From positions 29,959 through 93,958 of the forward strand of contig JAUWYR010000001.1 in NCBI GenBank assembly GCA_030615745.1: a stretch of DNA of 64,000 nt, read 5' to 3'. The position numbers were made by a program, and so were the translations under genes. Shown here piece after piece: positions 13,387 to 50,376 of this stretch. A model generated the notes under the pieces. The model did not search any database and had not been told where the DNA came from. It worked only from the letters and a program-made list of their open reading frames with translations. Source of the stretch: Candidatus Zixiibacteriota bacterium (lineage in GTDB: Bacteria > Zixibacteria > MSB-5A5 > SM23-73-2). Each line of letters starts with the position of its first letter. The first letter of the stretch is position 1.

Positions 13387-13402
13387 AAAGCTCTCTCCTT
13401 TT

Positions 13403-28841: not shown

Positions 28842-29659
28842 GAGCAAACAAAATGGGAAAAACTTTTAAAGTTTTTATCTTTATTCTCCTTATCTCAATC
28901 TTAACAGGTTGTGAGGAGAAGATAATCAAATCTGAAAGTGATTTTGAGGCAATAAGAGCTATAACCTTGGATGAGAATCCAAGCATTTTCAAAAGCGACA
29001 TCTTCGATACTTTACAGGATACGCTATTTTACAGGGAGATAACAAAAAGAGACTTTTGGATCAGTCATCCTATTACCGAAGCACCACCCGAATCAAATTA
29101 TACTCATGAGGTTAATGTTGAGATCGTGGATAGCATTAAGGGTGTTTTTCACCATTTTTTAAATGGGGTAGAATATGTTGATAGTTTTGAAGCCACATCT
29201 ATAACAAAAGGGTATTTAGTTAGATGGCCAGAGATTCCTCGCCACCGCGGCTGGATTTTGAAAAAAGTATCAGGTAATAAAATTTTCACCATACCTGGTG
29301 CATCTAGTTTTTCTAGCGTAATTATTACCTCTCCTGCTGGAAAAAATACTTTGCTTCGCTCAGGGATAACATCTTTAAAATCTTTTAAAGACATCTTAAG
29401 TTTTAACTCAGGCGACTCCATCACTCTGGAGTTAAGTCCGACGAAATCCACTGACTACTTATATCTCCATTATGATGATGGAACAAATTACATAAAGCGT
29501 CCATTTATTAAAGAAAATGGGAAATTTATATCTGGCTGTAAAATTGATGGAAAAGGATACCAGCACATTTTCATCGATATCATTGACAAAAGCTCGATAG
29601 ATGATAGCACAGCTTCTTATAAATCTAACGCATGGGGGATTTTGATTCAGGTTGAATGA
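28838..29659 (+). CDS. Hypothetical lipoprotein
   Basis: 273 aa with the lipobox ILTGC. ATGA overlap with the uvrB stop. No family recognised. Confidence 0.55.
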
Positions 29660-33730: not shown

Positions 33731-33891
33731 GATGAGCCTGCAGTGACCTGAAGTTATAAACACATCCTCTGGATTCTATACCCAGGGGAGGTGTTAAAAT
33801 TATTTAAGTTCTTATAGAAAATATTCCGCTACCAAAAAGATGCTTCTGGGGAAATAGAGATAAGTAACTTAAAACAAAAGCTTTGAGAGTT

Positions 33892-33926
33892 AAAAACATG
33901 GAGAGAAATCTCCGTGTTTTTTTTAT
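33892..33926 (+). terminator. Hairpin ACATGGAGA-gaaa-TCTCCGTGT + TTTTTTTT.
   Basis: Read directly, about 165 nt downstream of the adhesin gene. A second imperfect hairpin lies at 33770-33806. Confidence 0.55.
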
Positions 33927-34230
33927 TTTCGAAACTTAAGGGATGAGAGTATCTGTAGTCATCAGACGTTTTAAATAAATATCCAGTAATTATCCCTCTT
34001 GCTTGATCTTTTAACTTTTCAGGGAAAATCATCGCTGGAGTTAAAGCCCCCCGCAAAATGCGGGGAATCTACGACTTCAGCTTTACTTAAAAGCGACTGA
34101 AAAGAGATAAAAAAAATAATGTTGAAAAATAACCATTATAAAAGTGGATGTAATTAAAAGAGGATAAAGAATTGAGATAATTGGGTCGATTATTTTATAG
34201 AGGCGATTCTGATTTAAGCAAGGGAGGAAA

Positions 34231-37203: not shown

Positions 37204-38946
37204 TTACACCACCTGCGAGGGTATCTTTTTTTCCTTTTCCACCTTATACTTCTTAAAATAGACAACAAAAACAGAACCTTTGCCTAACTCAGATGTGAAT
37301 TCGATTTTTCCACCTAAATTGTTAACCAACCTCTGGACAATTGGTAATCCTAATCCTGTCCCGTCCTTTTTAGTAGAATAAAATGGATAAAAAAGCCTTT
37401 CCTTTTGCTCTCTGTTCATCCCCTTACCGTTGTCAACAACAGCCATGGGAATCCAATCATCATCTTCCTCATCCACCTCATCTTCAAAATAAAATTCCTT
37501 TAACTTTTTCAAACTTTTTTTAGCAATAATAAGTCTGTTCCCCTTTTCCTCCATCGCCTCCAAAGCATTAACTAAAAGGTTTAAAAGAAGCTGTTTTATC
37601 TGATTTTCCTCACCCCAAACCCACAGTGATTGGTCGGGTAGTTCTTTTTCTATTTTGACCCCCTCTCTGAAGGAAGGATGTTTTTTCACTATCTCGATCC
37701 CTTCATTTATGATAGATGTAAGCTCAACTTTGGACAAAGTGGTCTGTTTTATTTTTGCATATTGTAAAAACTCATTTAGTATCGAATTTAGCCTTGATGA
37801 TTCTTTTAAAATTAGCTCCATAAGTTTTTGATTCTTATCGGTGAGTTTAAGCTCCCCTTTTAAAACTTCAACTGAGCCGGAGATAGAAGCTAATGGATTA
37901 CGTATCTCATGTGCAATTCCAGCTGAGAGTTCACCCACAGCAGCAAGTCTATCCTTAATCCTCATCTCCTCTTCTATTTTTTTAACACCAGTTAAATCCT
38001 GAAAAATTGCGATCAATCCTCTCTTGCTTCCATCTTTGTCAATCAATATTGATGTACTCATTCCGATAGGGAACTTTCTTTTGTTCAAAGAGGTAATATA
38101 AAGCTCATAGCGGGAATGCATCTTCTCAGATTCTAACGCTTCAGAGAACCTCTCCGCAAACTCCGGCATTCTATTAAAAAAAACCTCTGTGAATTTCTTT
38201 CCCTTTATATCTTTTTCCTTATAGCCTAAGATCTCTTCTGCTGCTTTGTTAAAATATATTACATTTCCATAGTTGTCCACTGTCAGCACTCCAGACCTTA
38301 AATGTCTTAAGATGTCATCTGTGTCCATCTTCACTCGATCCAGCTCAGCAGAGGTGGACAAAAGCTTTTCACCTTCCTTTTTTAACCTCTGCGCCAGATA
38401 ACCGCTGATAAAAGCTATTAAATAAAAAGAACAGAAAAACAAAAAAAGCTTGTAAAAAGATGCTTCATCTAAACTGTTAAGAGCTGAAAAAACCTTTCTA
38501 AAAGAAACAAAGGTAAGCTCTTTTCCTTCCAAAAGAAAAGCCCATGAGCAAAAAAAACTTGCCAATGTGGCTACCAAGACTGTGCCGGATAGATGATAAA
38601 TGAGGCTGGCTGAGACGATGGTGATTAGGAAAAGGAGAAAAAATTCACTTGCCTGTCCTCCGGTTGAGTGAACAATTTCGCTCTCTATATATAGTTCGCA
38701 GATTATCTGTAATGCAATAATTGTATTGAAAAGCAAAGGGAGCTGAAGGTGAGTTCTTAAAAGAAAAAAGATAAGAAATCCTAAGGTTAAAAAACCATAG
38801 ATTAAAAAGGAGGGGATTAAAAAGTCAGGACTTTTCAGAATAAAAAGGACGATAGATAAAAGGAGTAAAAAGACCAAAAGCTTCAAAAATAAAAGCCAGT
38901 AGATCTTGGATGGTCTTTTTGGGCTATCTTCTAAAGAGATCTCCAT
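37204..38946 (-). CDS. PilS-like sensor histidine kinase (polytopic N-terminus, PAS, HisKA, HATPase)
   Basis: 580 aa. H-box AHEIRNPLASISG, N-box LLNLLVNALEA and G-boxes DNGKGM / GTGLGLPIV. No response regulator is adjacent. Confidence 0.85.
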   Translation of the reverse strand: MEISLEDSPKRPSKIYWLLFLKLLVFLLLLSIVLFILKSPDFLIPSFLIYGFLTLGFLIFFLLRTHLQLPLLFNTIIALQIICELYIESEIVHSTGGQASEFFLLFLITIVSASLIYHLSGTVLVATLASFFCSWAFLLEGKELTFVSFRKVFSALNSLDEASFYKLFLFFCSFYLIAFISGYLAQRLKKEGEKLLSTSAELDRVKMDTDDILRHLRSGVLTVDNYGNVIYFNKAAEEILGYKEKDIKGKKFTEVFFNRMPEFAERFSEALESEKMHSRYELYITSLNKRKFPIGMSTSILIDKDGSKRGLIAIFQDLTGVKKIEEEMRIKDRLAAVGELSAGIAHEIRNPLASISGSVEVLKGELKLTDKNQKLMELILKESSRLNSILNEFLQYAKIKQTTLSKVELTSIINEGIEIVKKHPSFREGVKIEKELPDQSLWVWGEENQIKQLLLNLLVNALEAMEEKGNRLIIAKKSLKKLKEFYFEDEVDEEDDDWIPMAVVDNGKGMNREQKERLFYPFYSTKKDGTGLGLPIVQRLVNNLGGKIEFTSELGKGSVFVVYFKKYKVEKEKKIPSQVV

Positions 38947-38986: not shown

Positions 38987-40186
38987 TTAGCCGATCTTTC
39001 CGATGATATCGAACATTGGAAGATACATAGCAATAAGAATTCCACCTATGACAGCCCCCATCACCACGATAATTACCGGCTCGATAATCGAAGTTAAAGC
39101 AGATACTGCTGCATCCACTTCCTCCTCATAGAAGTCAGCAATTTTTTGTAGCATCTCATCTAATCCTCCGGTCTTTTCACCAACTGAGATCATCTGACAG
39201 ACCATTGGTGGAAAGACCCCGGTCTCTTTTAGAGGTTGGGTGATGGTTTCTCCCTCAGCTATGGAGACCACTGATTTGCGGATAGCATCCTGAATCACTC
39301 TGTTGCCCGATGTTTTCGCTGTGATCTCGAGGGCGTCCAAAATGGAGACCCCGGAAGAGATCAAAGTGCCTAATGTACGAGTGAACCTCGCGATGGCACT
39401 CTTTCTTATGAGGTTTCCGAGCAAAGGAGCTTTTAATTTGAGTTTATCAATGGTCAACCTTCCACGGGGTGTTTTGGAGTAATAACGGTAGAAAATAAAA
39501 AGACCGATCAAAAGAATAAATCCGGTAAGAATATTGTGCCTAAGAAAAGCACTTATGCCTAAGACTATCTGAGTCGGTCCAGGAAGTTCAGCACCTAATC
39601 CCTCAAACATTTTGGCAAACACAGGAACAATATAGGTGAGCATAACAAAGGTGACTAAAGCAGCAACGGCGACAATAACTGAGGGATAGACTAAAGCCCC
39701 TTTTACTTTTCGGGCTAAAGCATCTGCTTTTTCTCTGTAAGTAGCTAATCTTGAAAGAATCTGGTCTAATGCTCCACCAATTTCTCCTGCATTAACCATG
39801 CTGACATATAGGTCATCAAAGGCTTTTTTATGCCGAGACAATGCATCAGCTAATGTGCTACCTGACTGAACGCTATCCTTTACTTTTTCAATCACCTCTT
39901 TGAATTGAGGAGTTTCTGCCTGCTGAGCCAATATCTCAAGACATTGAATCATTGGAAGCCCAGCTCCTATCATAGTGGAAAACTGACGGGTGAATCTCGA
40001 GATATGGATTTTTTTGATTCTCCTACCAAATCTGATATTTATCTGAGAGGGCTTGCTGGAAACTGATGTAACTAATATCTTATTTTGTCTTAAAATCCTT
40101 TCAAGCTCGGCTCTATTTTTCGCCTTCAGCTCTCCTGAGACCATAGCTCCTGCTAAGGTCTTACCTTGGTATTCGAATAAAGGCAA
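38987..40186 (-). CDS. pilC: Type IV pilus platform protein PilC (GspF family)
   Basis: 399 aa with two T2SSF repeats. Confidence 0.9.
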   Translation of the reverse strand: MPLFEYQGKTLAGAMVSGELKAKNRAELERILRQNKILVTSVSSKPSQINIRFGRRIKKIHISRFTRQFSTMIGAGLPMIQCLEILAQQAETPQFKEVIEKVKDSVQSGSTLADALSRHKKAFDDLYVSMVNAGEIGGALDQILSRLATYREKADALARKVKGALVYPSVIVAVAALVTFVMLTYIVPVFAKMFEGLGAELPGPTQIVLGISAFLRHNILTGFILLIGLFIFYRYYSKTPRGRLTIDKLKLKAPLLGNLIRKSAIARFTRTLGTLISSGVSILDALEITAKTSGNRVIQDAIRKSVVSIAEGETITQPLKETGVFPPMVCQMISVGEKTGGLDEMLQKIADFYEEEVDAAVSALTSIIEPVIIVVMGAVIGGILIAMYLPMFDIIGKIG

Positions 40187-40200: not shown

Positions 40201-41280
40201 TTAACTTGAGGAGACAAGCTGTTTTTTTCTGGATAGGATCTCATTTAACTCCTGGATATTAGTGCTTCTGCCCAAGGCATCGCCCAAGGTGATTTTGTGG
40301 GATAGATATAAATCAGCTAAGGATTGGTTCATGGTTTTCATACCATACTTTTGTCCGGCTTGAATCATCGAGTAAATCTGGTGAATTTTGTCATCTCTTA
40401 TTAGAGCACGGATTGCTGGAGTGCAGATCATTAACTCCAAAGCTAATAGCCTTCCTCCTCCGATTTTTGGGACCAGCTGCTGGGTTGCCACTGCTTGAAT
40501 CACGAAGGAAAGTGTTACCCTTATCTGTTCCTGCTGGTGTACTGGAAAGATATCTATAATCCTATTTATTGACTCAGCGCATGAGTTGGTATGTAGGGTG
40601 GCAAAGACTAAATGGCCAGTCTCTGATATATTCAATGCTGCCTCAGTAGTCTCAAGATCCCTCATCTCACCTATAAGCACCACATCTGGATCTTCCCTTA
40701 AGGCATATTTTAATGCTGATGCAAAAGAAGATGTATCTGAATAGACCTCCCTCTGGTTAATAAGGGAACAGTTATGTCGGTGAAGATATTCGATGGGATC
40801 CTCAACTGTTAAGATGTGATCATGTCTGGTTTGATTTATTCTGTTGATTATAGATGCCAGAGTTGTTGATTTACCACTTCCAGTAGGACCGGTTATCAAA
40901 ACCAGACCTTGAGGTAGCTTAGCAAAGTCAGCTACTACCTTGGGAAGACCTAATTCTTCAAAGCTTCTGATTTTGAAAGGGATCATCCTGATTGCTACTG
41001 CGACATTCCCCCTTTGCATAAAGACGTTGCATCTGAATCTGGAGAGATTCTCAATTCCAAAAGATAAATCAAGCTCACTTATTTCCTCAAATTTCTGTCT
41101 TTGCCTTTCATTCATAATACTATAAGCCAACTTTCTTGTGTCCTCTGGGGTCAAAGGCTCATAATCTGCGCGAGTCAATTTCCCATCAATCCTTAGTTGA
41201 GGTGGAGTTCCCACTGTCAGGTGAAGGTCCGAGGCGTTCTTTTTCACCATTAATTCTAAAAGTTCTCTAAGGGTAACCAT
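40201..41280 (-). CDS. pilT: Type IV pilus retraction ATPase PilT
   Basis: 359 aa. GPTGSGKST Walker A, the AIRALIRDDKIHQI motif and His box. Confidence 0.9.
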   Translation of the reverse strand: MVTLRELLELMVKKNASDLHLTVGTPPQLRIDGKLTRADYEPLTPEDTRKLAYSIMNERQRQKFEEISELDLSFGIENLSRFRCNVFMQRGNVAVAIRMIPFKIRSFEELGLPKVVADFAKLPQGLVLITGPTGSGKSTTLASIINRINQTRHDHILTVEDPIEYLHRHNCSLINQREVYSDTSSFASALKYALREDPDVVLIGEMRDLETTEAALNISETGHLVFATLHTNSCAESINRIIDIFPVHQQEQIRVTLSFVIQAVATQQLVPKIGGGRLLALELMICTPAIRALIRDDKIHQIYSMIQAGQKYGMKTMNQSLADLYLSHKITLGDALGRSTNIQELNEILSRKKQLVSSS

Positions 41281-41664
41281 ATCTCTTGATGCTTCCGCAT
41301 TTCCTTTCGAGTAGTTTTAAAGAAACTTTTGAACCAAAGAGTTTCTATAATATTATCGACTTTAAAATGAAATTCTTAAATTAGAGAGATAAAAAGAGTT
41401 TTTTAATAGATAAAAGATTTTATCGAGATTAATTATCCGCAGCGAACTTTTTTAGTTAAGAAAATAATTTGCAATATCAGAACTATTGGAGTATTCAAGA
41501 AACAGAATTCAAAGTTGGATAAGTCTTTGGAAATCAATGCAATATGTTTTAAGTTTAAAGTCTTCGCCTGCCTGATTTGAATTTTTTTAAAAAACTTGTT
41601 AAATATGTCTGAACTAAGATACTAAAAATAAAAGGGAAGATCAAATTCTTAATATCCATATAAA

Positions 41665-43359
41665 TTACAGATTGGTCTCAGCCAAGACCTCCTCAACTGT
41701 GGCTATTCCTGCTTTTATCTTCTCTATCCCTGCATCTCTTAATGTTAGCATTCCATCTTCTACAGCTTTTTCTTTTATCATCTGGCTGGAGGCACCATCT
41801 AAGATCATCTTCTCTATCTCCGGGATAATGGGCAATACCTCAAAAAGACCAGTCCTTCCGGAAAAGCCTGAGTTGTTGCATTCAGAACACCCTTTTCCAC
41901 GAAAAAACTTCATTTTCTTCGCTTCCTCTTCAGATAACCCTAACATCTCTATTGTAGCAGGAAGAACTTTCACCTCCTCTTTGCACGCGCTGCAGATTTT
42001 ACGAACTATCCTTTGAGCCATAATTAATCTGACCGCAGAAGCAACCAGATAATGTGGAATTCCCATGTCGACCAACCTGTTTATAGTGCTCGATGCGTCG
42101 TTGGTGTGTAGTGTAGAAAAGACTAAATGTCCTGTTAAAGCAGCACGAATCGCTATCTCAGCGGTCTCCTCATCTCTTATCTCCCCAACCATTATTATGT
42201 CGGGGTCCTGACGCAAAAAAGATCTTAAACAGGTGGCAAAAGTGCGTCCGATATCTGATTTGACCTGAACCTGATTGATACCATCGAAGTTGAACTCCAC
42301 CGGGTCTTCAGCTGTGAGAATATTGACATCTATGCTGTTGAGCTGTTTTAAAGCGGAATATAGGGTAGTGGTCTTGCCACTTCCAGTTGGTCCGGTTACA
42401 AGAATCATTCCATAGGGGAGTTTGATAGCTTTTGTGAACTTCCCCAGTCCCCTTTCAGGAAAACCGAGTCTGGTCAAATCGACCATCAAGCTTTTAGGGT
42501 CAAGTATTCGCATGACAACTTTTTCACCATATATAGTGGGTAAAATCGAGAGCCGAATATCAATAGCACGATCTCCTATTTTAACCTTGATTCTTCCATC
42601 CTGAGGCAATCTCCTTTCTGAGATATCTAAGTCCGCCATTATCTTCACCCTCGAGATAATAGCAGCACGGTATTTGAAAGGTAGAGGAGCCATCTCATGA
42701 AGGATTCCATCTATTCTATACCGCACCCTTATCCTCTTTTCATAGCATTCGATGTGAATATCAGATGAGCCCCTTCTGATTGCATCTGTGATAATTCCAT
42801 CAACTAATTTGACCAAGGGTTTGTCCTGAACCTGAGATTGAAGGTCTTGCTCAGAAGGGGTGTCTTCTTTTTCCTCGATAACTTCCAATTCCTCATCCTC
42901 CAATCCCTTTAAAATCTCACTTATTCCAGAAGTATCTCGATAGTGGGTATTTATTGCTTTCTGGATTGCTTTTTCCGGACTGATAACTGGTTGGATACCG
43001 CAGCTGGTTATAAATTTAATTGCATCCAGAACATAAATATTATTTGGGTCGGATATAGCCACCACCAGGGTTTTTCCTAATTTGGTGATCGGGATGACAT
43101 TGAACTTTCTGGCTATATCTAATGGAATGGTTTTGATCACCTCGGGATTGAGCTCTATATCAGAAAGGCGTAGGGTCCCGATGTTAAGCTGTTTTCCAAC
43201 GAATTCTGAAAGCTCCTCCTCACCCCCTAAAGCACCTATCTCGATCAAGATATCACCGAGCTTGGAATTCGCCCTCTTCTGTAGCTCTAAAGCTTTGTCC
43301 AGCTGGTCCTGGGTGATTTTGCCAGCTTTGACCAGCATCTTCCCGAGTTCAGTGCTCAT
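41665..43359 (-). CDS. pilB: Type IV pilus assembly ATPase PilB (GspE family with T2SSE_N domain and a tetra-Cys zinc site)
   Basis: 564 aa. GPTGSGKTTT, CSACK...CSECNNSG. Confidence 0.9.
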   Translation of the reverse strand: MSTELGKMLVKAGKITQDQLDKALELQKRANSKLGDILIEIGALGGEEELSEFVGKQLNIGTLRLSDIELNPEVIKTIPLDIARKFNVIPITKLGKTLVVAISDPNNIYVLDAIKFITSCGIQPVISPEKAIQKAINTHYRDTSGISEILKGLEDEELEVIEEKEDTPSEQDLQSQVQDKPLVKLVDGIITDAIRRGSSDIHIECYEKRIRVRYRIDGILHEMAPLPFKYRAAIISRVKIMADLDISERRLPQDGRIKVKIGDRAIDIRLSILPTIYGEKVVMRILDPKSLMVDLTRLGFPERGLGKFTKAIKLPYGMILVTGPTGSGKTTTLYSALKQLNSIDVNILTAEDPVEFNFDGINQVQVKSDIGRTFATCLRSFLRQDPDIIMVGEIRDEETAEIAIRAALTGHLVFSTLHTNDASSTINRLVDMGIPHYLVASAVRLIMAQRIVRKICSACKEEVKVLPATIEMLGLSEEEAKKMKFFRGKGCSECNNSGFSGRTGLFEVLPIIPEIEKMILDGASSQMIKEKAVEDGMLTLRDAGIEKIKAGIATVEEVLAETNL

Positions 43360-43369: not shown

Positions 43370-43858
43370 TTAATCTTTGAAGATGTCGTCCAGCTTGTCT
43401 TCAGCTGATTGGGTGAACTCAGTTCCGAGACTCAAATTTTCCTTATCTTCGGATTTTTTTGCTTGAGAGAGAATCGAGACTATACTTTCTCCTATCTCTT
43501 TGGCATATAGCCTGACCATCCCAATGGTAGTGCGATCATCGAAGATCACAGCTAAGATGGTTCTATCACCTACCAGGGTGAGATGGATATGGTCTCTTTT
43601 TCCCTGATGGAAAAGGATTGAGAACTCCGGCTCCCCTACAAGCCTAGCTATCTCTTTAGTGGATGCGAAGCTTCCAGCTAAAAGCGCAGCCAAAGCAGTT
43701 GTATCAAGAGTATGAGTAAAGCCCTGACGGGTGATGAGATAACCATCTTTGTCTACCAGAAGAGCACATTTCGCCTCAGCTCCCTTGATGAGCTTTTGAA
43801 GGGTTTGATTAATCCTCTCGATCTGCTCCTCGTAAATTATGAGTTTGTCATCGCTCAA
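43370..43858 (-). CDS. mglB: MglB (Roadblock/LC7 GTPase-activating partner of MglA)
   Basis: 162 aa. LIIYEEQIERINQTLQKLIKGAEAKCALLVDKDGYLI...FHQGKRDHIHLTLVGDRTILAVIFDDRTTIGMVRLY closely parallels the Myxococcus MglB sequence as I recall it. Confidence 0.8.
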   Translation of the reverse strand: MSDDKLIIYEEQIERINQTLQKLIKGAEAKCALLVDKDGYLITRQGFTHTLDTTALAALLAGSFASTKEIARLVGEPEFSILFHQGKRDHIHLTLVGDRTILAVIFDDRTTIGMVRLYAKEIGESIVSILSQAKKSEDKENLSLGTEFTQSAEDKLDDIFKD

Positions 43859-43875
43859 TTTTTTTCCCTCCCTAT

Positions 43876-44820
43876 CTATTTGAAAACATTTTTTATCCAG
43901 CGTAAAAGAAAGAAATCCTTGTTTTTTTTTGCTTTTGCTACTATTATCTTTTCTTTTTCAAAAGAGGGCTTTTTAATTTCAGGGGTAGTCTTTTTTTTCT
44001 TTTCAATTTCTTCTTTTTGTTTTTTTATATCATCCTCTTGAATTTGAGTTTTTGCTTTAGGAGATACCTCCATTACTGCTACTTCCTGTTGCTTTTGTTT
44101 GTATTTCACTTCTTTCTTTTCTTCTGGCTTCTCAAATACTACCGGGGATAAGACTTTCCTTTTTTCCTCTAAGGTTTTTATCATCTTTTTTTCTTCAACA
44201 ACTTCTTGGTAGAGTTTTTCCTTCTTTTTTATCTCAGGTTTTCCTTTTGCTTTATCCAAAACCTGTTTGATTATACATTTTAGCGTATCAAATACACCCT
44301 CTCCTTTTATGGCAACAGCCTCGAAATAGGGTAATTTTCGAGGATTCAAAACATTTTCCAATTCCTCAATCTCGAATATCTCTAAAAGATCTCTTTTGTT
44401 ATATTGGAAGACCATTGGAAGGTTTTCTAACACATACCCATACTCATTCAGATTTTCTATCAAGTTATTCAGGCTTTCGATATTTTCATCCATCTTTGAT
44501 CTCTGTGAATCAGCCACGAAAACCAGCCCGTCTACTCCTCTTAAAACCAGCTTCCTTGTAGCATTGTAAAAGACCTGACCCGGAACAGTATAAAGTTGAA
44601 ATTTGGTAGAAAAACCGTGGATCTCACCTATGTTTAAAGGCAAAAAATCGAAATATAAAGTTCTATCAGTATCTGTTGCCAAAGAGATCAATTCTCCTTT
44701 GGAGGTATTTGGGATTTTTTTGTGCACATATTGTAGATTAGAGGTCTTGCCACTCATACCCGGTCCATAATAGATGATCTTACACGAGATCTCTTTAAAC
44801 GCGTAGTTTATCGATACCAT
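43876..44820 (-). CDS. mglA: MglA-type Ras-like GTPase with a ~120-aa Lys/Glu-rich C-terminal extension ending in an amphipathic helix
   Basis: MVSINYAFKEISCKIIYYGPGMSGKTSNLQYV...TDRTLYFDFLPL...LYTVPGQVFY...YNKRDL matches MglA motif for motif (P-loop, switch I Arg/Thr, PGQ, NKRD). Canonical MglA is about 195 aa; this ORF is 314 aa. Confidence 0.85.
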   Translation of the reverse strand: MVSINYAFKEISCKIIYYGPGMSGKTSNLQYVHKKIPNTSKGELISLATDTDRTLYFDFLPLNIGEIHGFSTKFQLYTVPGQVFYNATRKLVLRGVDGLVFVADSQRSKMDENIESLNNLIENLNEYGYVLENLPMVFQYNKRDLLEIFEIEELENVLNPRKLPYFEAVAIKGEGVFDTLKCIIKQVLDKAKGKPEIKKKEKLYQEVVEEKKMIKTLEEKRKVLSPVVFEKPEEKKEVKYKQKQQEVAVMEVSPKAKTQIQEDDIKKQKEEIEKKKKTTPEIKKPSFEKEKIIVAKAKKNKDFFLLRWIKNVFK

Positions 44821-44829
44821 TTTTTCTTC

Positions 44830-45177
44830 TTATAAGGATTCTTTAGCTTTTATCCTCTGAGCTGCATTTTTTATCTCCAATCTTACCAACCCGATGTTAA
44901 CCGTTGGCTCAGCAGTTACCACAATTATACCTATCCCAGCATCCGCCATAAAAATTTTTCCCTTCTCCGCCTCAATTGTCACTTGTTTGAGAGGAGAGCT
45001 TTTGAGTTTCTTTAAAGATTTTTCCACGGTTGAAGTTATCGAGGCTGCTATTGCCCCCACTGTCTCTTCATGGAAACGGGTATCGAGGTCAGCGGCAATG
45101 ATTATGCCATCTTCCCCTACAATAAGACTTCCCGTAACCCCTGTGGTCTTGTTAAGCTCCTCTAAGATTTGATACAT
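44830..45177 (-). CDS. Roadblock/LC7 domain protein (MglC-like paralogue)
   Basis: Tracked ORF trimmed to ATG 45177 (GAGGAGGAAAAAT RBS). GVTGSLIVGEDGIIIAADL...IFMADAGIGIIVVTAEPTVNIGLVRLEI. Confidence 0.7.
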   Translation of the reverse strand: MYQILEELNKTTGVTGSLIVGEDGIIIAADLDTRFHEETVGAIAASITSTVEKSLKKLKSSPLKQVTIEAEKGKIFMADAGIGIIVVTAEPTVNIGLVRLEIKNAAQRIKAKESL

Positions 45178-46099
45178 ATTTTTCCTCCTCGGGTAATAAA
45201 ATCTTTTGACCGTATCTTTGTTCAAGATATTTTTTAATGTTCTCTTGCGCTTTTGATATTCGGATATTCAAAAGCTCATCGGTATGACGATCAGCCAAAG
45301 TTAGAAGACAAAACTTTCCAATACTTGTAAGATTAATCCACAACTTATCTGATAAGATCTGTATTCTTTCTATTTTTTCTTCATTTAATCTTTTAAGTAG
45401 CTGAGTGTTGACCTCTCTGAAGGTCACTCCAAAAGGTGCGAGTTCATCCTCATCTAAACTTTGCGAAAGGCTTTTTGCCACAACTAATCCATCAGAGTCA
45501 ACAAGAATTACCCCAAAAACCCCAGGATACTCCTTTAAATAGTGGATCGCATCCTCGATAGAGACCTCCAAGGATATCTCCTTGCCTTTTTGGATAGGTT
45601 TTTCTTTCCCAACTTTTTTAGCTAAAGTTTTTTTGCTTTCCTTGTAGCTAACTTCACCTATCTGACCAAGAAAGCTCGGTTTTTGCCTTTTTTCCCTCCT
45701 GAAACTTTTAAGTGTATCTCCTAAGGAGTGTCTAACTATAAATGGGAGCAAAGATACCTGAAATATAAAAGCTGGAAAATAATTTAGGACTCCTAAACTA
45801 AAAGCTTTTCCTATCTCAATTGGAAACATAACGAAAAGGAAAAATCCAAACACAAGCCCCAAGGTTAATCTGAACAAAAATGTTGAAAAACTATAAAGAA
45901 CCAGTAAAGCGGAAGGAAGGGAAGGAAAAAGGAAAGATAAAGCTAAAAAATACCAAACAAGTTCAAAAAGAAAAATAAAAAAAGGGTTAAACTCAACTCT
46001 TACCCCGAAATTTTTTGGGAAAAAGACCAATGGAACAATAGCTAAAAAAAAGCCTAAAAGAATAAGCTGTCTTATCTCTTTAGTATGGGAGGGGATCAT
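45152..46099 (-). CDS. Polytopic membrane protein with a cytoplasmic C-terminal Roadblock/LC7-like domain
   Basis: 315 aa with about 4 TM helices. After a linker: AIHYLKEYPGVFGVILVDSDGLVVAKSL...KFCLLTLADRHTDELLNIRI. Confidence 0.6.
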   Translation of the reverse strand: MIPSHTKEIRQLILLGFFLAIVPLVFFPKNFGVRVEFNPFFIFLFELVWYFLALSFLFPSLPSALLVLYSFSTFLFRLTLGLVFGFFLFVMFPIEIGKAFSLGVLNYFPAFIFQVSLLPFIVRHSLGDTLKSFRREKRQKPSFLGQIGEVSYKESKKTLAKKVGKEKPIQKGKEISLEVSIEDAIHYLKEYPGVFGVILVDSDGLVVAKSLSQSLDEDELAPFGVTFREVNTQLLKRLNEEKIERIQILSDKLWINLTSIGKFCLLTLADRHTDELLNIRISKAQENIKKYLEQRYGQKILLPEEEKYVSNLRGA

Positions 46100-46102
46100 T
46101 TT

Positions 46103-46954
46103 CTACTCCTCATCTATTTTTTCTAAAAGCTTGTTAATTCGTATCCTCAGATATCCGAAATTTATCTTTTCTTTACATCTTAAAACCAAAAAATTTTTCT
46201 TAAGCTTTATTATCCATAATAAGAAATCTTCGGACTCAATTATAACCTGTGAGAGATTACCGAATTCAACTTTTGAAAGCTCTTTTTGTATGGAGGTAAA
46301 GATATAGGTTGAAGATGGACCAACTGCTTCATCTTCTTTTTCTGCGGAAGCATCAAGAGATTTTGACCTTCTTTGCGTGACAAGGTCATCCATTCCAACC
46401 ACTGAAGCATTCATTATATTTGGGAAAAGGATTAGTTCTTCCAAAGCAGAGGAGAAGGTGACTTTTTCCTCAGGCTTTTTACCTTTGTCAGCAATTGGCG
46501 GTGGTATAAATGAAACGGATTCTTTTTTTGCCTCTTTTAACTTCTCACCAGCTTCCTTTAGTAATTTTTTAACCAAAGAGCTCTGAGGATCTGTGGAATA
46601 GAGTTTTTTAAGAATAGATTCTGCTTTTTTGATTTCACCTTTTTTTAAAAGTATTTGAGACAATAAAAGTTCAATTGCTCTTGTCCTTCCATCAGCTTGA
46701 ATGGCTAACATAAGTTCCTTTTCTGCTTCAGAATATAATTTTTTATCGAAGTTTATCTTAGCCATAATCAGATGTGCTGGACCATAGTCATGATGTTTGG
46801 CTAATCCCCTCTGGCAAACAAAACTTGCTTTGTCCAAATCTCTCTTTCTCCTTAAAGCTTCAGATAAAGCTGCAAAAAGTTTAGAATCAGGGTCTTTTTC
46901 CAATATTTTTAGGCACTTAATTATTCTCTCATCCAAATCTTGTAGGTCTACCAT
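46103..46954 (-). CDS. TPR-repeat protein with a C-terminal Roadblock/LC7-like domain
   Basis: 283 aa. TPR-like helices in residues 1-140; the C-terminal pattern LILFPNIMNASVVGMDDLV...FLLWIIKLKKNFLVLRCKEKINFGYLRIRI. Confidence 0.55.
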   Translation of the reverse strand: MVDLQDLDERIIKCLKILEKDPDSKLFAALSEALRRKRDLDKASFVCQRGLAKHHDYGPAHLIMAKINFDKKLYSEAEKELMLAIQADGRTRAIELLLSQILLKKGEIKKAESILKKLYSTDPQSSLVKKLLKEAGEKLKEAKKESVSFIPPPIADKGKKPEEKVTFSSALEELILFPNIMNASVVGMDDLVTQRRSKSLDASAEKEDEAVGPSSTYIFTSIQKELSKVEFGNLSQVIIESEDFLLWIIKLKKNFLVLRCKEKINFGYLRIRINKLLEKIDEE

Positions 46955-47036
46955 ATCTTTTCCGAAAGTAAGGTTATTTTTAATTATATCGACAAAAAAT
47001 ACAAATTTTCAACTTTTACTTATCTTGATTTTTAGC

Positions 47037-47297
47037 TTAACTCAAAGCTTTTTTTATATATAAAAAACCTAAGGCTAAAAGAGACAACCCTCCGAGCTTC
47101 AAAAGCCCAACTAAAGTTTGACTTATTTGAGTAAAAAGGTCAAAAATAAAACCTAAGCTTAATAATCCAAAAGATATTGAAATCAAAAGCCAAGGAGAGG
47201 AGAGCTCCCCTCCTTTGACCAAAGAGTTTATTTTAAATGCGAGAAATAAACATCCCCAAACCACAATCACAATCAATACGTTAATCAAGGTGCTCAA
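47037..47297 (-). CDS. Small three-TM membrane protein
   Basis: 86 aa, hydrophobic, co-directional within the cluster. Confidence 0.4.
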   Translation of the reverse strand: MSTLINVLIVIVVWGCLFLAFKINSLVKGGELSSPWLLISISFGLLSLGFIFDLFTQISQTLVGLLKLGGLSLLALGFLYIKKALS

Positions 47298-47357
47298 AAA
47301 ACCCCCTAATCTTTAAAATTTCCTCATTGTTTTTCTTTTAGCTTTTTTCTAAAAAAT

Positions 47358-48542
47358 TTATTGAATTTCCCTTAATGTTCTATAAAAATCCTGGTCGAGA
47401 TTATATTTTTTTACCACATACTTATTTTGATCAAAGACAAGTGCTGTCTCTTTTTTTATTAAAAATATAGTTTTTTTTGTTATGTTTTTCCCTAAAAATG
47501 CTTCTACATTTTTCAGATGAGTTAAAAGCAATGCATTTAGCCCTTCTAAGACCTGATGTAATCTTGTTTCTTTTGGAATGGAGAAACAAGCTTTTAAAAA
47601 ATTCTTTCTGTTGAATATCCCATCGTGCATTAAATCAGCTAAGATAGGATATTGTGTCTTTTTAGAAATAAAGCCCTGGTTAAAAATCTTCTCTTTGCTT
47701 TTCCCTAATTTTCTTTCCAAGATATCCTCGATTAGAAGAAAAGAGGTTGAAAAGATTTTATAAGAATTCTCAAATAAAAGCTCCTCCTCTTTTTTCTTCT
47801 CAAGAACAGTTTTTTTCTTTTCACCGGTAAGAACAAGCTTATCCGTTAGAAGACGGTGTAACGATTTATAAGTAGCAAATTCACCTAAAGGGGTTAGCTC
47901 TACTATTTCTGGAAGTGTTCTTTCGCCATTAACCAACAAAAAAGTCTGCAACTCTTCTGAGAAAAACTCTATTTTATTCGAAATCACCTGTGCACTCAAA
48001 AAGAGAGGAAAGGGATTGACCTTCAAAGCTACATCATCTGGAGGCAGAAGTTTTTGCATCTGGGTCAACTCATCTATTCTTCTTACCCCCTCCATTATCA
48101 TGTTCATTGTATTCAATTCAGTTATCAGTTGATCTTTATCCGGAAGTCGTCCATCCAGAAATTCAAAATCTCCTTGGTTCCAGCTGAATATACTATATAC
48201 TATCTCCTCCGCCTGTAACTTAATTACGCCAACAAACTCAAGTTGTGTAAGAACTCCTAACTCCAACAATGTCTTTGTTATTTTTTTCTTCTGTGCTTTA
48301 TACAAAAACAAAGCCCTTTCAAAATCCTTTTGGGAGATTTTGCCCTTTTTTAAAAACAACTTACCCAAAAGCTCCTCCCACTTGTCTCCAGAGGAGGCGA
48401 AGACGATATTCCCCTCAACAAAATAAATCCTTTTTTGTTGAGTCTGTCTTTTCAACTGCAGGAGCCCGGTCTTTTTTCCAGTGAAAATAAGTTGCAAAAG
48501 ATCAGAAAAGGGAACAGTTTTTAAATTTCCAGTGAAGCTCAT
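47358..48542 (-). CDS. DUF4388 (PATAN-type) domain protein
   Basis: 394 aa. The N-terminus GNLKTVPFSDLLQLIFTGKKTGLLQLKR...IYFVEGNIVFASS...FSWNQGDFEF matches the DUF4388 pattern. Confidence 0.7.
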   Translation of the reverse strand: MSFTGNLKTVPFSDLLQLIFTGKKTGLLQLKRQTQQKRIYFVEGNIVFASSGDKWEELLGKLFLKKGKISQKDFERALFLYKAQKKKITKTLLELGVLTQLEFVGVIKLQAEEIVYSIFSWNQGDFEFLDGRLPDKDQLITELNTMNMIMEGVRRIDELTQMQKLLPPDDVALKVNPFPLFLSAQVISNKIEFFSEELQTFLLVNGERTLPEIVELTPLGEFATYKSLHRLLTDKLVLTGEKKKTVLEKKKEEELLFENSYKIFSTSFLLIEDILERKLGKSKEKIFNQGFISKKTQYPILADLMHDGIFNRKNFLKACFSIPKETRLHQVLEGLNALLLTHLKNVEAFLGKNITKKTIFLIKKETALVFDQNKYVVKKYNLDQDFYRTLREIQ

Positions 48543-48763: not shown

Positions 48764-50371
48764 TTAAAAATTAAGCGTAAGTTTTAAGAAAAGATAAATT
48801 CCTAAAATAAATAGAGTTAAAAATCCAAATCTTTTTGTTTTTTGGTTTTTCCATCCAGCAAAAAAAGATAGTATAAAAAGGTAAAAAAAGATTAAAAATA
48901 AATAAGTAGGGGAGCTAACTTTAACTGTTGAATAAGGAAGATTGGAAAAGAAGCTGACTGATTTCAAAGTTAAACTTAAACAAAGCCAGTTAAATGCGGA
49001 AAATAATCCTGAAAGGGTGGAGCTTAGAAGGGCTACTATCACAGTGGTGCTTCCAACGATGACTGATAGACTCACCAAAGGGACCATAATCAAATTAGCC
49101 GAAAATGTATAGATGCTTATTTGATTAAAGTAATATGCGATTATGGGATAGGTTGAAAGTGTTGCTGTTAAAGAGACCAGTGAGGGCAAAACAACCCAGT
49201 TTTTTATAATCCCTTTGAATCTGTTAACTATTTGAGAAAATAGGCTATCCGGATTAACGATAAGAAGTATAATCCCAGCGGTGGCGGCATAAGAGAGCTG
49301 GAAACCAACATCAAAAAGGCTCAAAGGAGAGAATAATAATATTAAAAGGGCGGAGAAGGCTAAGATATTAATTAATTCTTTTTCTTTCTCCCAGAAAAAA
49401 GCTAAAAGAAAACAACTCGCCATAACAGATGCACGCACAACTGAGGGCTCGTTGTTGGTTATATAGGAGAAGATCACTACAGCTGGAATAGTTAGAATGT
49501 AGCTTGATTTTCGAGGAATCCTTAATAGGAGGAAAAAATAAAAACAGAAAAGCACCACTAATCCCACATTGGAACCAGATATAGCCAGGAGATGGAGAGT
49601 CCCGGTGTTGGTGAACATCTGATAGATTTCTTTGGGGATTCCCCTCCTTTCTCCCAAGACAAATCCCGAGAGTAGGGCATGATGTGGGTCTTTTAAATTT
49701 GAGCCGAATACTTTCAGAATAAAATACTTTACAGGAAGGACTATTTTAGAGACAAAGATACTTTTATTTTCCTGAAAAAGAATATTTATATATTTAGGGG
49801 ATCTTATGCTCATAAGAGCAAAAATATCCTTTCTCTCAAGATATTTTCTGTAATCGAATGCCTTCGGGTCTTGAGGAATAAATGGCTGGTACAAAAATCC
49901 TCTTACTCTGATGAAATCTCCATAGTTGAAAAGGTTGGTCTGCCTTCTTATCTTCAAAAGGATTTTGCCTGAAGTTAGGAGTGATTTTTCATCTAGTATG
50001 ATGCTTTTTGTCTCAACTGTAAGGAAAGTTTTGTCCTTTCGGATGTCTGGAGCTTTTATCAGATTCCCGCTAATTATAACTGACTTTTTTAGATTTGCGT
50101 ATGCATCAAGAGATAAGAAATTTTTGATATGGTTTGGAGGAAAAACCTTTGTTTTTAACTCATACTGGAAAAAACCAGCTACCACCAAAGTTGAGATTAT
50201 AACCAGACTGGATGCAGAATGTCTTTTGATAATAAGAAAAATAAGGCAGAGAAAAAATCCAAAGAGTAAAAGGATGAGAAGTAGAGTTAAAGATAAATCA
50301 AAGTGGTTACCCAAGACGATACCAAAAATATAAGCTATGCACACAAAAAGAGCTGGTCTTCTTTTTGCCAT
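48764..50371 (-). CDS. comEC: ComEC/Rec2-family DNA internalisation channel (DUF4131 + Competence domains; no metallo-beta-lactamase domain)
   Basis: 535 aa, polytopic, with LLAISGSNVG and the conserved core. Confidence 0.75.
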   Translation of the reverse strand: MAKRRPALFVCIAYIFGIVLGNHFDLSLTLLLILLLFGFFLCLIFLIIKRHSASSLVIISTLVVAGFFQYELKTKVFPPNHIKNFLSLDAYANLKKSVIISGNLIKAPDIRKDKTFLTVETKSIILDEKSLLTSGKILLKIRRQTNLFNYGDFIRVRGFLYQPFIPQDPKAFDYRKYLERKDIFALMSIRSPKYINILFQENKSIFVSKIVLPVKYFILKVFGSNLKDPHHALLSGFVLGERRGIPKEIYQMFTNTGTLHLLAISGSNVGLVVLFCFYFFLLLRIPRKSSYILTIPAVVIFSYITNNEPSVVRASVMASCFLLAFFWEKEKELINILAFSALLILLFSPLSLFDVGFQLSYAATAGIILLIVNPDSLFSQIVNRFKGIIKNWVVLPSLVSLTATLSTYPIIAYYFNQISIYTFSANLIMVPLVSLSVIVGSTTVIVALLSSTLSGLFSAFNWLCLSLTLKSVSFFSNLPYSTVKVSSPTYLFLIFFYLFILSFFAGWKNQKTKRFGFLTLFILGIYLFLKLTLNF

Positions 50372-50376
50372 TTAAC

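Follow-up and report, generated by a model that had tools for sequence, protein, structure and literature searches.

In Myxococcus the polarity genes are scattered, and mglBA does not adjoin pilB. Unipolar pili in Thermus are set by MglA/MglB, and a M. xanthus screen for regulators of type IV pili yielded PATAN proteins. In M. xanthus, none of PilB, PilT and PilM is bound directly by MglA-GTP, which acts through the TPR protein SgmX; in Bdellovibrio, MglA has a TPR protein, Bd2492, as a binding partner (PMC7519303). In Synechocystis the PATAN domain by itself binds the N-terminal domains of PilB1 and PilC and sets pilus polarity (bioRxiv 10.1101/2021.06.11.447907). Group 1 and Group 5 mglA genes "occasionally" adjoin PATAN genes (Wuichet and Sogaard-Andersen 2014, PMC4316618; Makarova et al. 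2006).

We analyzed a gene cluster from an uncultured Zixibacteria-type bacterium within a 64-kb stretch of DNA, hereafter the window. The whole set, centered on the Ras-like GTPase MglA, reads as an expanded, apparently membrane-anchored form of the known polarity switch and not as a new kind of system. Our preferred reading, to which we give a probability of roughly 0.55, is that it represents a lineage-specific expansion of the MglA/MglB module, most likely for spatial control of the extension motor PilB.

Composition of the locus

An earlier note on this DNA had described seven minus-strand ORFs beside pilB, comprising a single MglA, MglB, three additional Roadblock proteins (one with TPR repeats), a DUF4388/PATAN protein and a small TM protein. 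All seven were found in place, and recomputed gaps, Pfam and hhalign bore out the gaps, the domains and the composition (Table 1). The short or overlapping gaps suggest co-expression and stoichiometric assembly; the overlap between the TM-Roadblock and single-domain Roadblock genes is kept among relatives (median -17 nt).

Table 1. Features of the module and its neighbors, in order of transcription from the minus strand; gaps are to the next gene of the cluster.
Feature	Position	Strand	Basis or remark	Gap
murJ	50377-51945		upstream neighbor of comEC	
ComEC DNA-uptake channel	48764..50371	-	Competence 7.4e-62	
PATAN (DUF4388/PatA_N) protein, 394 aa	47358..48542	-	Pfam PF14332 E 7.5e-31	60 nt
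Four-helix PATAN insert, residues 55-119, MshEN/GSPII-like	48186..48380	-	24+5+24 motif spacing	
Small membrane protein, 86 aa, three hydrophobic segments	47037..47297	-	no Pfam family	82 nt
Promoter-like site TTGAAA-18-TATAAT, 11/12	46983..47012	-	5' of TPR-Roadblock gene, inside cluster	
TPR-Roadblock fusion, 283 aa	46103..46954	-	TPR_19 2.5e-09 (Pfam)	3 nt
Membrane-anchored (TM-) Roadblock protein, 315 aa	45152..46099	-	Pfam Robl_LC7 9.1e-07	26-nt overlap, taking ATG at 45177 after GAGGAGG
Single-domain Roadblock, 115 aa	44830..45177	-	Pfam Robl_LC7 5.5e-15	9 nt
MglA gene	43876-44820	-	Pfam Ras/Arf/Gtr1	17 nt
MglA GTPase domain, residues 1-193, Group-1 type	44242..44820	-	phmmer vs PDB, motifs	
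MglA C-terminal low-complexity K/E-rich linker, residues 194-300	43921..44241	-	comparison of orthologues	
MglA C-terminal basic amphipathic tail KDFFLLRWIKNVFK	43879..43920	-	predicted membrane-targeting sequence	
MglB, 162 aa, TTG start after GGGAGGG	43370..43858	-	Pfam Robl_LC7 2.8e-14	10 nt
PilB extension ATPase, N-terminal MshEN	41665..43359	-	T2SSE 9.4e-140, MshEN 8.6e-18	
PilT retraction ATPase	40201..41280	-	T2SSE 3.7e-45	
PilC platform protein	38987..40186	-	T2SSF 8.3e-71	
PilS-like sensor histidine kinase	37204..38946	-	6TM_PilS, PAS, HisKA, HATPase	

The MglA translation contains the P-loop GPGMSGKT, R53-T54, TVPGQ (T78, Q82) and NKRD. Phmmer searches of the PDB matched it to M. xanthus MglA (6h17, E 1.8e-74) and to the T. 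thermophilus structure 3t12 (3.4e-70), with an alignment collinear over residues 3-192. Identity to M. xanthus MglA, counted from the phmmer alignment, is ~68%, and R53, T54, T78 and Q82 occupy the same positions in that protein. By sequence, MglA is a true orthologue of Myxococcus MglA and, by the Group-1 criteria of PMC4316618, a Group-1 GTPase predicted to be catalytically intact. MglB matches M. xanthus MglB (6izw_B, phmmer E 4.7e-36 over residues 5-161) and has the same Roadblock core and C-terminal extension; by sequence it is a true Myxococcus MglB orthologue and the predicted cognate Roadblock GAP of MglA.

Beyond its GTPase domain, MglA continues into a disordered linker 105-240 aa long among 67 orthologues, with a mean identity of 12% versus 73% for the GTPase domain. 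A basic amphipathic tail ends the protein in 67/67 orthologues and reads ...RGFFKRLFGIK in 40 of them; it is predicted to be a membrane anchor from its near-match to the membrane-targeting sequence of E. coli MinD (KGFLKRLFGG; PMC5471200). Across the 67 orthologues, hydrophobic residues make up 41% of the final 14 positions, K/R 38% and D/E 1%, and only 37% of the tails have a hydrophobic moment above the 95th percentile of the linker. This long extension with its MinD-like anchor had been overlooked in the earlier note.

All three extra ORFs proved to be Roadblock proteins, as had been proposed, by HMM and structure comparisons (Pfam, hhalign, AF2 with Foldseek, and PDB profiles). In the TPR-Roadblock protein, residues 1-140 form some three TPR repeats, which a linker connects to the Roadblock domain at the C-terminus (about 165-283). 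A Pfam search of the window's own copy detected no Roadblock domain; the L001 orthologue has a precomputed PF03259 match, and the C-terminal 124 residues align with the Roadblock family at 99.0% in hhalign (E 6.6e-18). In the PDB the profile of this C-terminal region matches the Asgard Roadblock 7yh1 (1.7e-11) and LAMTOR2 (3e-05), and a search of 1.84 billion representatives found the fusion in ~34 clusters (E<=1e-30). In the TM-Roadblock protein (Robl_LC7 score 29 bits, cut-off 23), residues 5-125 form four TM helices, and a disordered stretch (140-180) links them to the Roadblock domain (181-296), modeled by AF2 as alpha-beta-beta-alpha-beta-beta-beta-alpha; Foldseek aligned the model with 7yh1_A (E 1e-07, TMt 0.85, rmsd 1.4 Å) and with M. 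xanthus MglB (TMt 0.87). For the single-domain Roadblock, the family profile matched 7yh1 at 5.7e-13, LAMTOR2 at 8e-03 and MglB at only 3e-03, and had no MglC match in the PDB. The three accessory domains form one paralogue group apart from MglB, with hhalign values of 95-99% to one another and only 60-86% to MglB. MglC was considered as their counterpart, and the PDB profile search gave no detectable orthology.

The small membrane protein retains the signature KGGELSxxW...KKxLS among orthologues, and in 68/79 loci the interval between the PATAN and TPR genes contains an ORF with two or more hydrophobic segments (three to four in 62). The module conserves two integral membrane components, and we considered a conservon-like device in which the 4TM-Roadblock and small TM proteins would respond to a cue from the envelope or a surface by controlling the nucleotide state of MglA, PilB being switched cell-wide. 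A Streptomyces conservon also joins a membrane protein and a Roadblock protein to a GTPase of the MglA family (PMC4316618), the accessory Roadblock profiles match CvnB5 (3leq) at ~1e-4, and a PilS-like kinase lies after pilC. However, this MglA is of Group 1 (TVPGQ, Arg finger) and not the conservon-type Group 2, the module contains no histidine kinase or CvnC/DUF742 homologue, and the TM segments are nearly without extracytoplasmic loops fit for sensing; we regard such cell-wide signaling as quite unlikely.

The PATAN protein, whose orthologues head the cluster in all loci, was modeled by AF2 with a mean pLDDT of 84. The PATAN domain lies at the N-terminus; it is followed by a winged-helix-like segment (~195-242) and, at the C-terminus, by a bundle of helices (246-391), and the protein has no receiver domain. 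Outside the insert, Foldseek gave no PDB fold match, and the bundle has no family assignment. The insert itself, also overlooked previously, superimposes on MshE with c-di-GMP (5htl_B, Foldseek prob 1.00, rmsd 1.3 Å over 52 columns, 29% identity) and matches PilF GSPII-A (9g1w, prob 0.95). The motif Arg reads Leu in 106/119 sequences and Gln in 95/119. The insert resembles the MshEN module at the N-terminus of the neighboring PilB: a local alignment to PilB residues 4-55 reaches a score of 85, where shuffled sequences give 27 ± 5, and the PATAN HMM matches PilB ORFs at E<1e-5.

Conservation of gene order

We compared ~160 related loci, mostly from Zixibacteria metagenome-assembled genomes, with synteny assessed in 82 non-redundant genome loci and ~45 long metagenome loci. 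The order PATAN, small TM, TPR-Roadblock, 4TM-Roadblock, Roadblock, MglA, MglB, PilB is invariant in the ~160 loci; an arrangement shared by all related loci of testable length is far beyond chance. It persists at accessory-protein identities down to 26-29%. pilB follows mglB in 63/63 testable genome loci (median gap 71.5 nt) and in all the long metagenome loci, which refutes a chance juxtaposition and establishes that the proposed linkage of module and pilB recurs in relatives.

The wider claim of a head-to-tail fusion to pilB-pilT-pilC-pilS stands for the genes and for the mglB-pilB junction; pilB and pilT, however, are separated by 384 AT-rich nt. pilT follows pilB in 47/58 loci, with other genes there in 11/58, and pilC follows pilT in 47/47. 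The promoter-like site within the cluster is a possible internal promoter, a consensus match only, as such sites in the region are no more numerous than in shuffles. Given this site, the 384-nt interval and the loci in which pilT does not follow pilB, a single transcription unit reaching pilT, pilC and pilS is doubtful. The tight coupling of the module is to the extension ATPase only.

On the other side of the module, comEC lies directly 5' of the PATAN gene in 57/67 loci, at a median gap of 113 nt and down to 0 nt (L004), a conserved neighbor missed in the earlier note. The same molecular logic could have a competence pilus as its output, in place of motility or front-rear polarity, with PilB extension coupled to ComEC at one site. 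The Thermus type IV pilus machinery serves DNA uptake, and a study by Salzer et al. in 2015 reportedly, from its title, dealt with Thermus MglA/MglB in pilus functions and competence. Against this, the gap is 221 nt in the window, a subclade with the full module lacks the upstream comEC (e.g. L003, L016, L023 and L028), and murJ, which is unrelated to competence, is kept with comEC in 52/57 loci having comEC upstream, suggesting plain gene-order conservation. We judge a competence output unlikely, and it is compatible with spatial control of PilB.

Because comEC and murJ are also conserved upstream, part of the synteny could reflect lineage-wide gene order and not function. Taken further, the pilB adjacency would be inherited order throughout, and the module would control a gliding machine, cell division or envelope growth. 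Nearly all loci belong to one broad lineage, Zixibacteria and relatives, so that conservation could be partly phylogenetic inertia; Group 1 MglA neighborhoods elsewhere "vary widely" (PMC4316618), and the window also encodes T9SS-type cargo and an SprB-repeat protein. Yet pilB is retained in every testable locus while pilT is replaced in some, the mglB-pilB link outlasts the divergence of the accessory proteins to as little as 22-29% identity, independent experiments in three other phyla link MglA, TPR and PATAN proteins to PilB, and the PATAN insert is specifically similar to the PilB N-terminus. We consider a target other than the pilus highly unlikely.

Proposed control of pilus extension

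Under spatial control of PilB, the basic amphipathic tail on its flexible linker would tether MglA to the inner membrane, as its sequence suggests, and MglA would therefore act in two dimensions near the pilus base, by analogy with lipid-anchored eukaryotic Ras and Rho. As Roadblock domains are dimers, the 4TM-Roadblock and soluble Roadblock proteins, encoded by overlapping genes, may pair, with the TPR-Roadblock protein perhaps joining. Such a membrane-bound platform could place MglA-GTP or MglB, the role played by MglC and RomR/RomX in Myxococcus. At MglB-rich sites MglA-GTP would be hydrolysed, limiting active MglA to one site or pole. By analogy with SgmX and Bd2492, MglA-GTP may signal through the TPR protein and also through the PATAN protein, with no direct contact to PilB; the PATAN protein could then bind the PilB N-terminal region and PilC, as in cyanobacteria, and control whether PilB engages the pilus machine. 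In this way the switch would set the place and timing of type IV pilus extension, serving twitching and possibly DNA uptake. To speak of polarity in this uncultured lineage is an extrapolation.

Comparison with known systems

The literature search found no paper describing this composition and none combining "Zixibacteria" and "MglA". The fixed seven-gene combination, which the earlier note too did not recognize as a described system, and the tethered MglA appear undescribed; the elements are known singly, since MglA-PATAN neighborhoods, PATAN-PilB binding and TPR effectors of MglA are covered by PMC4316618, bioRxiv 10.1101/2021.06.11.447907 and PMC7519303, respectively. The suggestion of a minimal, self-contained reversal device is not supported: the module is expanded, and no reversal input is visible in the window.

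The M. xanthus polarity module (MglA, MglB, MglC, RomR/RomX, RomY, SgmX) shares the MglA catalytic residues and MglB orthology including the C-terminal region; it too has an extra Roadblock paralogue (MglC), and a TPR protein, SgmX, that links MglA-GTP to PilB-dependent pilus formation. Here, in contrast, one invariant cluster abuts pilB where the Myxococcus genes are scattered, the order is mglA-mglB and not mglB-mglA, and MglA has 314-449 aa with linker and MinD-like tail instead of being a soluble protein of 195 aa. Of the accessory Roadblocks, one spans the membrane and another is TPR-fused, none being a detectable MglC orthologue, and the TPR protein has 283 aa against 1,060 aa for SgmX. 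Myxococcus has RomR/RomX and Frz genes, whereas neither these nor a Frz-like chemosensory system is visible within the window. The Bdellovibrio bacteriovorus system (MglA, Bd2492, RomR) shares a TPR-binding MglA needed for type IV pilus formation but lacks the Roadblock expansion and PATAN, and its genes are not clustered with pilB. Bdellovibrio is not known to have an MglB.

The cyanobacterial PATAN-REC regulators PixG, PixE, PilG and LsiR share the PATAN domain with its two-repeat helical insert. They have a receiver domain where the protein described here has the winged-helix-like segment and helical bundle, and the input to PatA-type regulators is a chemosensory phosphorelay, compared with a proposed GTPase module here. 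The MglA-PATAN surveys (1,611 genomes) found variable neighborhoods in place of a fixed seven-gene module, and do not report a 1:4 GTPase:Roadblock ratio, TPR- or TM-Roadblock fusions, a tailed MglA or an obligatory pilB neighbor. The Streptomyces conservon (CvnA-D) likewise places its membrane protein, Roadblock and MglA-family GTPase in one operon; its Group 2 GTPase, histidine kinase and CvnC are all missing here. Two eukaryotic likenesses are analogies only: Ragulator-Rag, in which several membrane-tethered Roadblock dimers scaffold a small GTPase, as they may do here, and lipid-anchored Ras/Rho, with a variable linker and basic membrane anchor on the GTPase. The closest solved Roadblock relatives are Asgard archaeal (7yh1) and not LAMTORs, and the predicted anchors are TM helices and an amphipathic helix, as opposed to the lipid modifications of Ragulator, Ras and Rho.

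The seven-gene module and its linkage to pilB

An earlier note on this region had described seven co-directional ORFs on the minus strand that run into pilus motor genes, and both the ORF list and the sequence bear out their positions. Its domain assignments held as well, with a Pfam search matching PatA_N/DUF4388 (the PATAN domain), Robl_LC7 in three proteins, TPR_19, and Ras/Arf/Gtr1. The intergenic distances from the PATAN gene to mglB are, in order, 60, 82, 3, -26, 9, and 17 nt. Downstream of mglB, Pfam identifies pilB, pilT, pilC, and a PilS-like kinase; comEC and murJ lie upstream of the PATAN gene.

Features of the window, with positions and best supporting matches
Feature	Position	Strand	Match or remark
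PATAN (DUF4388) protein, 394 aa	47358-48542	-	PF14332, E 7.5e-31 (Pfam)
Small TM protein, 86 aa	47037-47297	-	
TPR-Roadblock protein, 283 aa	46103-46954	-	TPR_19, 2.5e-09 (Pfam)
TM-Roadblock protein, 315 aa	45152-46099	-	Robl_LC7, 9.1e-07 (Pfam)
Roadblock protein, 115 aa	44830-45177	-	Robl_LC7, 5.5e-15; from ATG with GAGGAGG ahead
MglA-like GTPase, 314 aa	43876-44820	-	Ras/Arf/Gtr1 (Pfam)
MglB-like protein, 162 aa	43370-43858	-	Robl_LC7, 2.8e-14 (Pfam); start codon TTG
pilB	41665-43359	-	Start 10 nt past the mglB stop
pilB-pilT gap	41281-41664		384 nt, AT-rich
PilS-like kinase	37204-38946	-	
murJ and comEC	48764-51945	-	Directly upstream of the module
491-aa ORF	35560-37035	+	
SprB-repeat/Ig protein (861 aa), then FlgD-Ig protein (410 aa)	31145-35463	+	T9SS C-terminal sorting domain (Por_Secre_tail) in the second
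273-aa ORF	28838-29659	+	
Giant protein, 2,195 aa	20101-26688	+	Right-handed β-helix/NosD repeats; C-terminal dockerin type I domain
CusCBA-type heavy-metal efflux operon	8492-14728	-	Outer-membrane factor, membrane-fusion protein, AcrB-family pump

Homologs of MglA at 54-76% identity lie in neighborhoods with the same gene order, one of them on a complete Zixibacteria chromosome. Searching species-representative genomes for the PATAN protein gave 129 relatives and 80 loci; of these, nearly all lie in Zixibacteria metagenome-assembled genomes, and some are labeled Ignavibacteria, Calditrichota, GN15, or Terriglobales. Zixibacteria bacterium SM23_73_2 is the closest named relative (69% identity for the TM-Roadblock protein). 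The loci from the genome scan were annotated with the window's proteins, and contigs were counted only when long enough to tell. The next gene was TPR-Roadblock after PATAN in 72/72 loci, TM-Roadblock after TPR-Roadblock in 68/68, Roadblock after TM-Roadblock in 66/66 (with the two genes overlapping in most loci, median -17 nt), MglA after Roadblock in 66/66, and MglB after MglA in 64/64. The adjacency to pilB, on which the earlier note had built its case, recurs among relatives, PilB being next after MglB in 63/63 loci (median gap 71.5 nt). The proposed tie to the retraction ATPase proved looser: PilT follows PilB in 47 of 58 loci and is not next in the other 11, and PilC follows PilT in 47/47. 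An independent survey of metagenome contigs, for which six sequences from the most divergent TPR-Roadblock proteins served as seed, yielded 260 relatives. Gene order was identical in all loci above 9 kb, including those whose accessory proteins were only 22-29% identical to those of the window. Synteny across about 160 loci excludes a chance juxtaposition with pilB. Given the invariant next-gene counts, the conserved unit consists of the seven genes plus pilB, and pilT, pilC, and pilS are usual yet dispensable neighbors.

Several contigs carrying the module bear the record labels Terriglobales, Ignavibacteria, Calditrichota, or Deferrimicrobium (the related loci L006, L010, L035, L058, and others). 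Their proteins cluster with the Zixibacteria versions, and L006 and L005 are one contig; the odd phylum labels are probably binning or labeling artifacts and not true cross-phylum spread.

The MglA/MglB pair and the MglA tail

Residues 1-193 of MglA, the GTPase domain, align gap-free with the M. xanthus protein (E 1.8e-74); T. thermophilus MglA is matched with E 3.4e-70 (both PDB sequence searches). The G3 motif TVPGQ is present (Y77-T78-V79-P80-G81-Q82), so that Thr stands where Ras has Asp and the catalytic Gln is kept. An intrinsic arginine finger is found in D52-R53-T54, where R53 stands beside the conserved G2 Thr and is aligned with M. xanthus R53. A TVPGQ motif, an Arg finger, and coupling to mglB define Group 1 MglA (Wuichet and Sogaard-Andersen 2014, PMC4316618), and here mglB begins 17 nt past mglA. 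The GTPase domain belongs to Group 1, but the architecture of the whole protein is a variant, with 314 aa in the window and 313-449 aa in relatives as opposed to a single domain of ∼195 aa.

In a PDB search, MglB matches its M. xanthus counterpart over the full length (6izw_B, E 4.7e-36, residues 5-161), including the C-terminal extension, and T. thermophilus 1j3w with E 2.7e-21. Of the M. xanthus residues A64 and G68, which we take to be GAP-critical, the first is kept and the second is Glu in the window MglB (residue count from the alignment). Fold and full-length similarity predict MglB to be the Roadblock GAP of MglA, and the two are true orthologs of the M. xanthus pair, in the gene order mglA-mglB.

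Behind the GTPase domain, the 67 MglA orthologs carry a low-complexity linker of 105-240 aa, with a mean identity among them of 12% versus 73% for the GTPase domain. In all 67, this linker is followed by a basic, aromatic, acid-free C-terminal tail, the last 14 residues being 41% hydrophobic, 38% K/R, and 1% D/E. The tail reads ...RGFFKRLFGIK in 40/67 orthologs, a close match to KGFLKRLFGG, the membrane-targeting sequence of E. coli MinD (PMC5471200), and the window MglA ends in the variant KDFFLLRWIKNVFK. A hydrophobic-moment test discriminated weakly; the case for the tail as an anchor is one of conservation, composition, and likeness to MinD. MglA may thus be membrane-tethered through a MinD-like tail, which would suggest that some bacterial Ras-like GTPases stay permanently anchored at the membrane, like eukaryotic ones.

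Accessory Roadblock proteins and the PATAN protein

The Roadblock domain that the earlier note placed in the TPR protein gave no Pfam match in the window copy, but three independent results establish it: a precomputed PF03259 match for an ortholog, hhalign of the C-terminal region to the Roadblock family (99.0%, E 6.6e-18, 109 columns), and a profile search of the PDB (Asgard Roadblock 7yh1 at 1.7e-11, LAMTOR2 at 3e-05). The TPR part matches only generic TPR entries in the PDB, and at 283 aa the protein differs from SgmX, the TPR effector of M. xanthus, which has 1,060 aa. The TM-Roadblock protein is modeled with four TM helices, a linker without ordered structure, and a Roadblock domain of canonical fold, α-β-β-α-β-β-β-α. 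Foldseek superposes this fold on known Roadblock structures and on that of MglB from M. xanthus (E 1e-07, TMt 0.85-0.87, rmsd ∼1.4 Å).

All three accessory proteins belong to Roadblock/LC7 (PF03259). With hhalign probabilities of 95-99% among themselves and 60-86% against MglB, their Roadblock domains form one paralog group, with Asgard Roadblocks and LAMTOR2 as closer relatives than MglB in PDB profile searches. We considered whether they could be MglC orthologs, but no MglC chain appeared among PDB matches at E<=1 for the Roadblock and TPR C-terminus profiles; this presumes that MglC structures are among the PDB entries searched. A functional analogy to MglC may still hold. The gap between the PATAN and TPR genes is occupied by a small hydrophobic ORF in 68/79 loci, with the conserved signature KGGELSxxW...KKxLS.

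The PF14332 match covers residues 4-159 of the PATAN protein against model positions 1-121. Within it, residues 55-119 form a four-helix insert (AF2 model) that fits the structure of the MshE N-domain, which binds c-di-GMP (5htl; Foldseek probability 1.00, rmsd 1.3 Å, 52 columns, 29% identity), and also that of Thermus PilF GSPII-A. Aligned with the N terminus of the adjacent PilB, the insert scores 85 versus 27 +/- 5 in shuffles, and the PATAN family HMM is matched even by PilB ORFs of other loci; a likeness of this insert to ATPase N termini has been reported before (bioRxiv 10.1101/2021.06.11.447907). MshEN domains carry two tandem 24-residue motifs, RLGxx(L/V/I)(L/V/I)xxG(L/V/I)(L/V/I)xxxxLxxxLxxQ, with a 5-residue spacer (PMC5013675). 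The insert keeps the fold and the 24+5+24 spacing, but the Arg at position one is replaced, by Leu in 106/119 sequences in motif 1 and by Gln in 95/119 in motif 2. Motif 1 ends in His instead of Gln in 106/119, and Gln110 of motif 2 is invariant. With the motif arginines replaced, binding of c-di-GMP by the insert is doubtful, and its likeness to the PilB N terminus suggests a concrete mechanism, competition or mimicry.

The remainder of the PATAN protein comprises a winged-helix-like segment and a long helical bundle (AF2 pLDDT 84), for which Foldseek against the PDB gave no credible fold match. A PatA-type response regulator was rejected, as Pfam gave no CheY-like receiver and no Response_reg match and the C-terminal part is helical. 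Kinship of either terminus with Roadblock proteins was likewise dismissed (hhalign probability <1%).

Pilus genes, proposed mechanism, and known systems

By Pfam, PilB combines T2SSE with an MshEN N terminus, PilT is a short T2SSE protein, and PilC has two T2SSF repeats. Pfam turned up no pilM, pilN, pilO, pilP, pilQ, or pilin gene in the window ORFs that were scanned, and the genes for the pilus structure therefore probably lie at another place in the genome. The PilS-like kinase gene adjoins no pilR or pilA, and the next genes lie on the opposite strand, the 491-aa ORF directly beside it; at the thresholds applied, neither this ORF nor the 273-aa ORF matched a Pfam family.

Tight spacing and overlaps from the TPR gene to pilB are compatible with co-transcription, and no intrinsic terminator was found between mglB and pilB. 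The best promoter-like site of the region (TTGAAA-18-TATAAT, 11 of 12) falls between the small TM and TPR genes, and the pilB-pilT gap holds several promoter-like hexamer pairs, with no ORF of at least 60 aa and no Rfam match. Since promoter and terminator counts were no higher than in shuffles, these scans are weak evidence either way. A single transcription unit through pilS is therefore unproven.

The gene next to PATAN on its upstream side is comEC in 57/67 loci, with murJ present too in 52 of those, which may reflect a link of the module to DNA uptake or simple gene-order conservation. The same module with DNA uptake as its output would accord with the comEC adjacency, and since gene-order conservation would account for that adjacency too, we consider this output unlikely. 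Synteny without functional coupling could likewise be supposed for pilB itself, but this is very unlikely. The whole parts list in one invariant cluster ending at pilB is strong comparative evidence for a single pathway.

Elsewhere in the window, the β-helix/dockerin protein is probably located at the cell surface. The SprB-repeat and Por_Secre_tail proteins look like type IX secretion cargo, in agreement with an FCB-group organism, and prompt one to ask whether a gliding-type surface system exists alongside the pili. The membrane-fusion protein of the efflux operon has four heavy-metal-binding HMBD repeats. G+C ranges from 0.32 to 0.48 across 2-kb bins, peaking in the efflux operon and the β-helix gene and lowest (0.32-0.36) over the MglA module and pilS region. 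No tRNA, rRNA, or other structured RNA reached the Rfam gathering threshold anywhere in positions 1-64000.

In Myxococcus, Thermus, Bdellovibrio, and cyanobacteria, MglA/MglB, Roadblock paralogs, TPR adaptors, and PATAN proteins are found piecemeal, in scattered loci, and the route from these parts to PilB is still under debate. The leading pole of M. xanthus is marked by MglA-GTP, which promotes the formation of pili; MglB keeps it off the opposite pole, and MglA-GTP works via the TPR protein SgmX without directly binding PilB, PilT, or PilM; MglA of Bdellovibrio binds the TPR protein Bd2492 (PMC7519303). Thermus MglA/MglB restrict pili to one pole. The PATAN domain of Synechocystis alone binds the N-terminal domains of PilB1 and PilC, is membrane-located, and sets the direction of movement (bioRxiv 10.1101/2021.06.11.447907).

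Because the hosts of the module are uncultured, we infer all of its function, from interactions and membrane anchoring to polar output. On the observed identities, folds, conservation, and gene order, our preferred reading (probability roughly 0.55) is a MglA/MglB switch anchored at the membrane, where the 4TM-Roadblock, Roadblock, and TPR-Roadblock proteins would form a platform fixing its location, and the TPR and PATAN proteins would read the GTP state of MglA and gate PilB at the pilus base. The module could also be a conservon-like signaling device that is non-spatial, which is quite unlikely.

The earlier note had not recognized the composition as a described system. This stands for the fixed combination and falls away for several of the individual links: PATAN-PilB and MglA-TPR-PilB connections are experimentally known in other organisms, and MglA-PATAN neighborhoods and 1:2 MglA:MglB coupling occur occasionally in Group 1 (PMC4316618). 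A literature search found no paper with Zixibacteria and MglA together, and neighborhood queries gave Myxococcus work only. The fixed eight-gene design thus appears undescribed, as do its 1:4 GTPase:Roadblock ratio, its TPR-Roadblock and 4TM-Roadblock architectures, its MglA with a MinD-like tail, and its obligatory pilB neighbor. The module also names candidates for model organisms, such as the PATAN proteins MXAN_3211 and MXAN_4965, which surfaced in a screen for regulators of type IV pili in M. xanthus and are unstudied there, and it serves as a natural "Rosetta stone" joining parts studied apart in myxobacteria and cyanobacteria.

A bolder reading, tentative and somewhat unlikely, likens the module to Rag-Ragulator, a multi-Roadblock membrane scaffold for small GTPases. 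The three accessory Roadblocks and the small TM protein would form a membrane-embedded platform at the pilus base, one Roadblock with its own 4-TM anchor and one with TPR repeats, on which MglA, anchored by its MinD-like tail, is loaded and unloaded, with PATAN as a decoy or partner of the MshEN N terminus of PilB. If true, a small GTPase of bacteria would do its switching on a scaffold of several Roadblocks while bound to the membrane at all times. This would be the closest prokaryotic analog of Rag-Ragulator or lipid-anchored Ras signaling, and it would also physically join the MglA-TPR route to pilus control of myxobacteria and the PATAN-PilB route of cyanobacteria.
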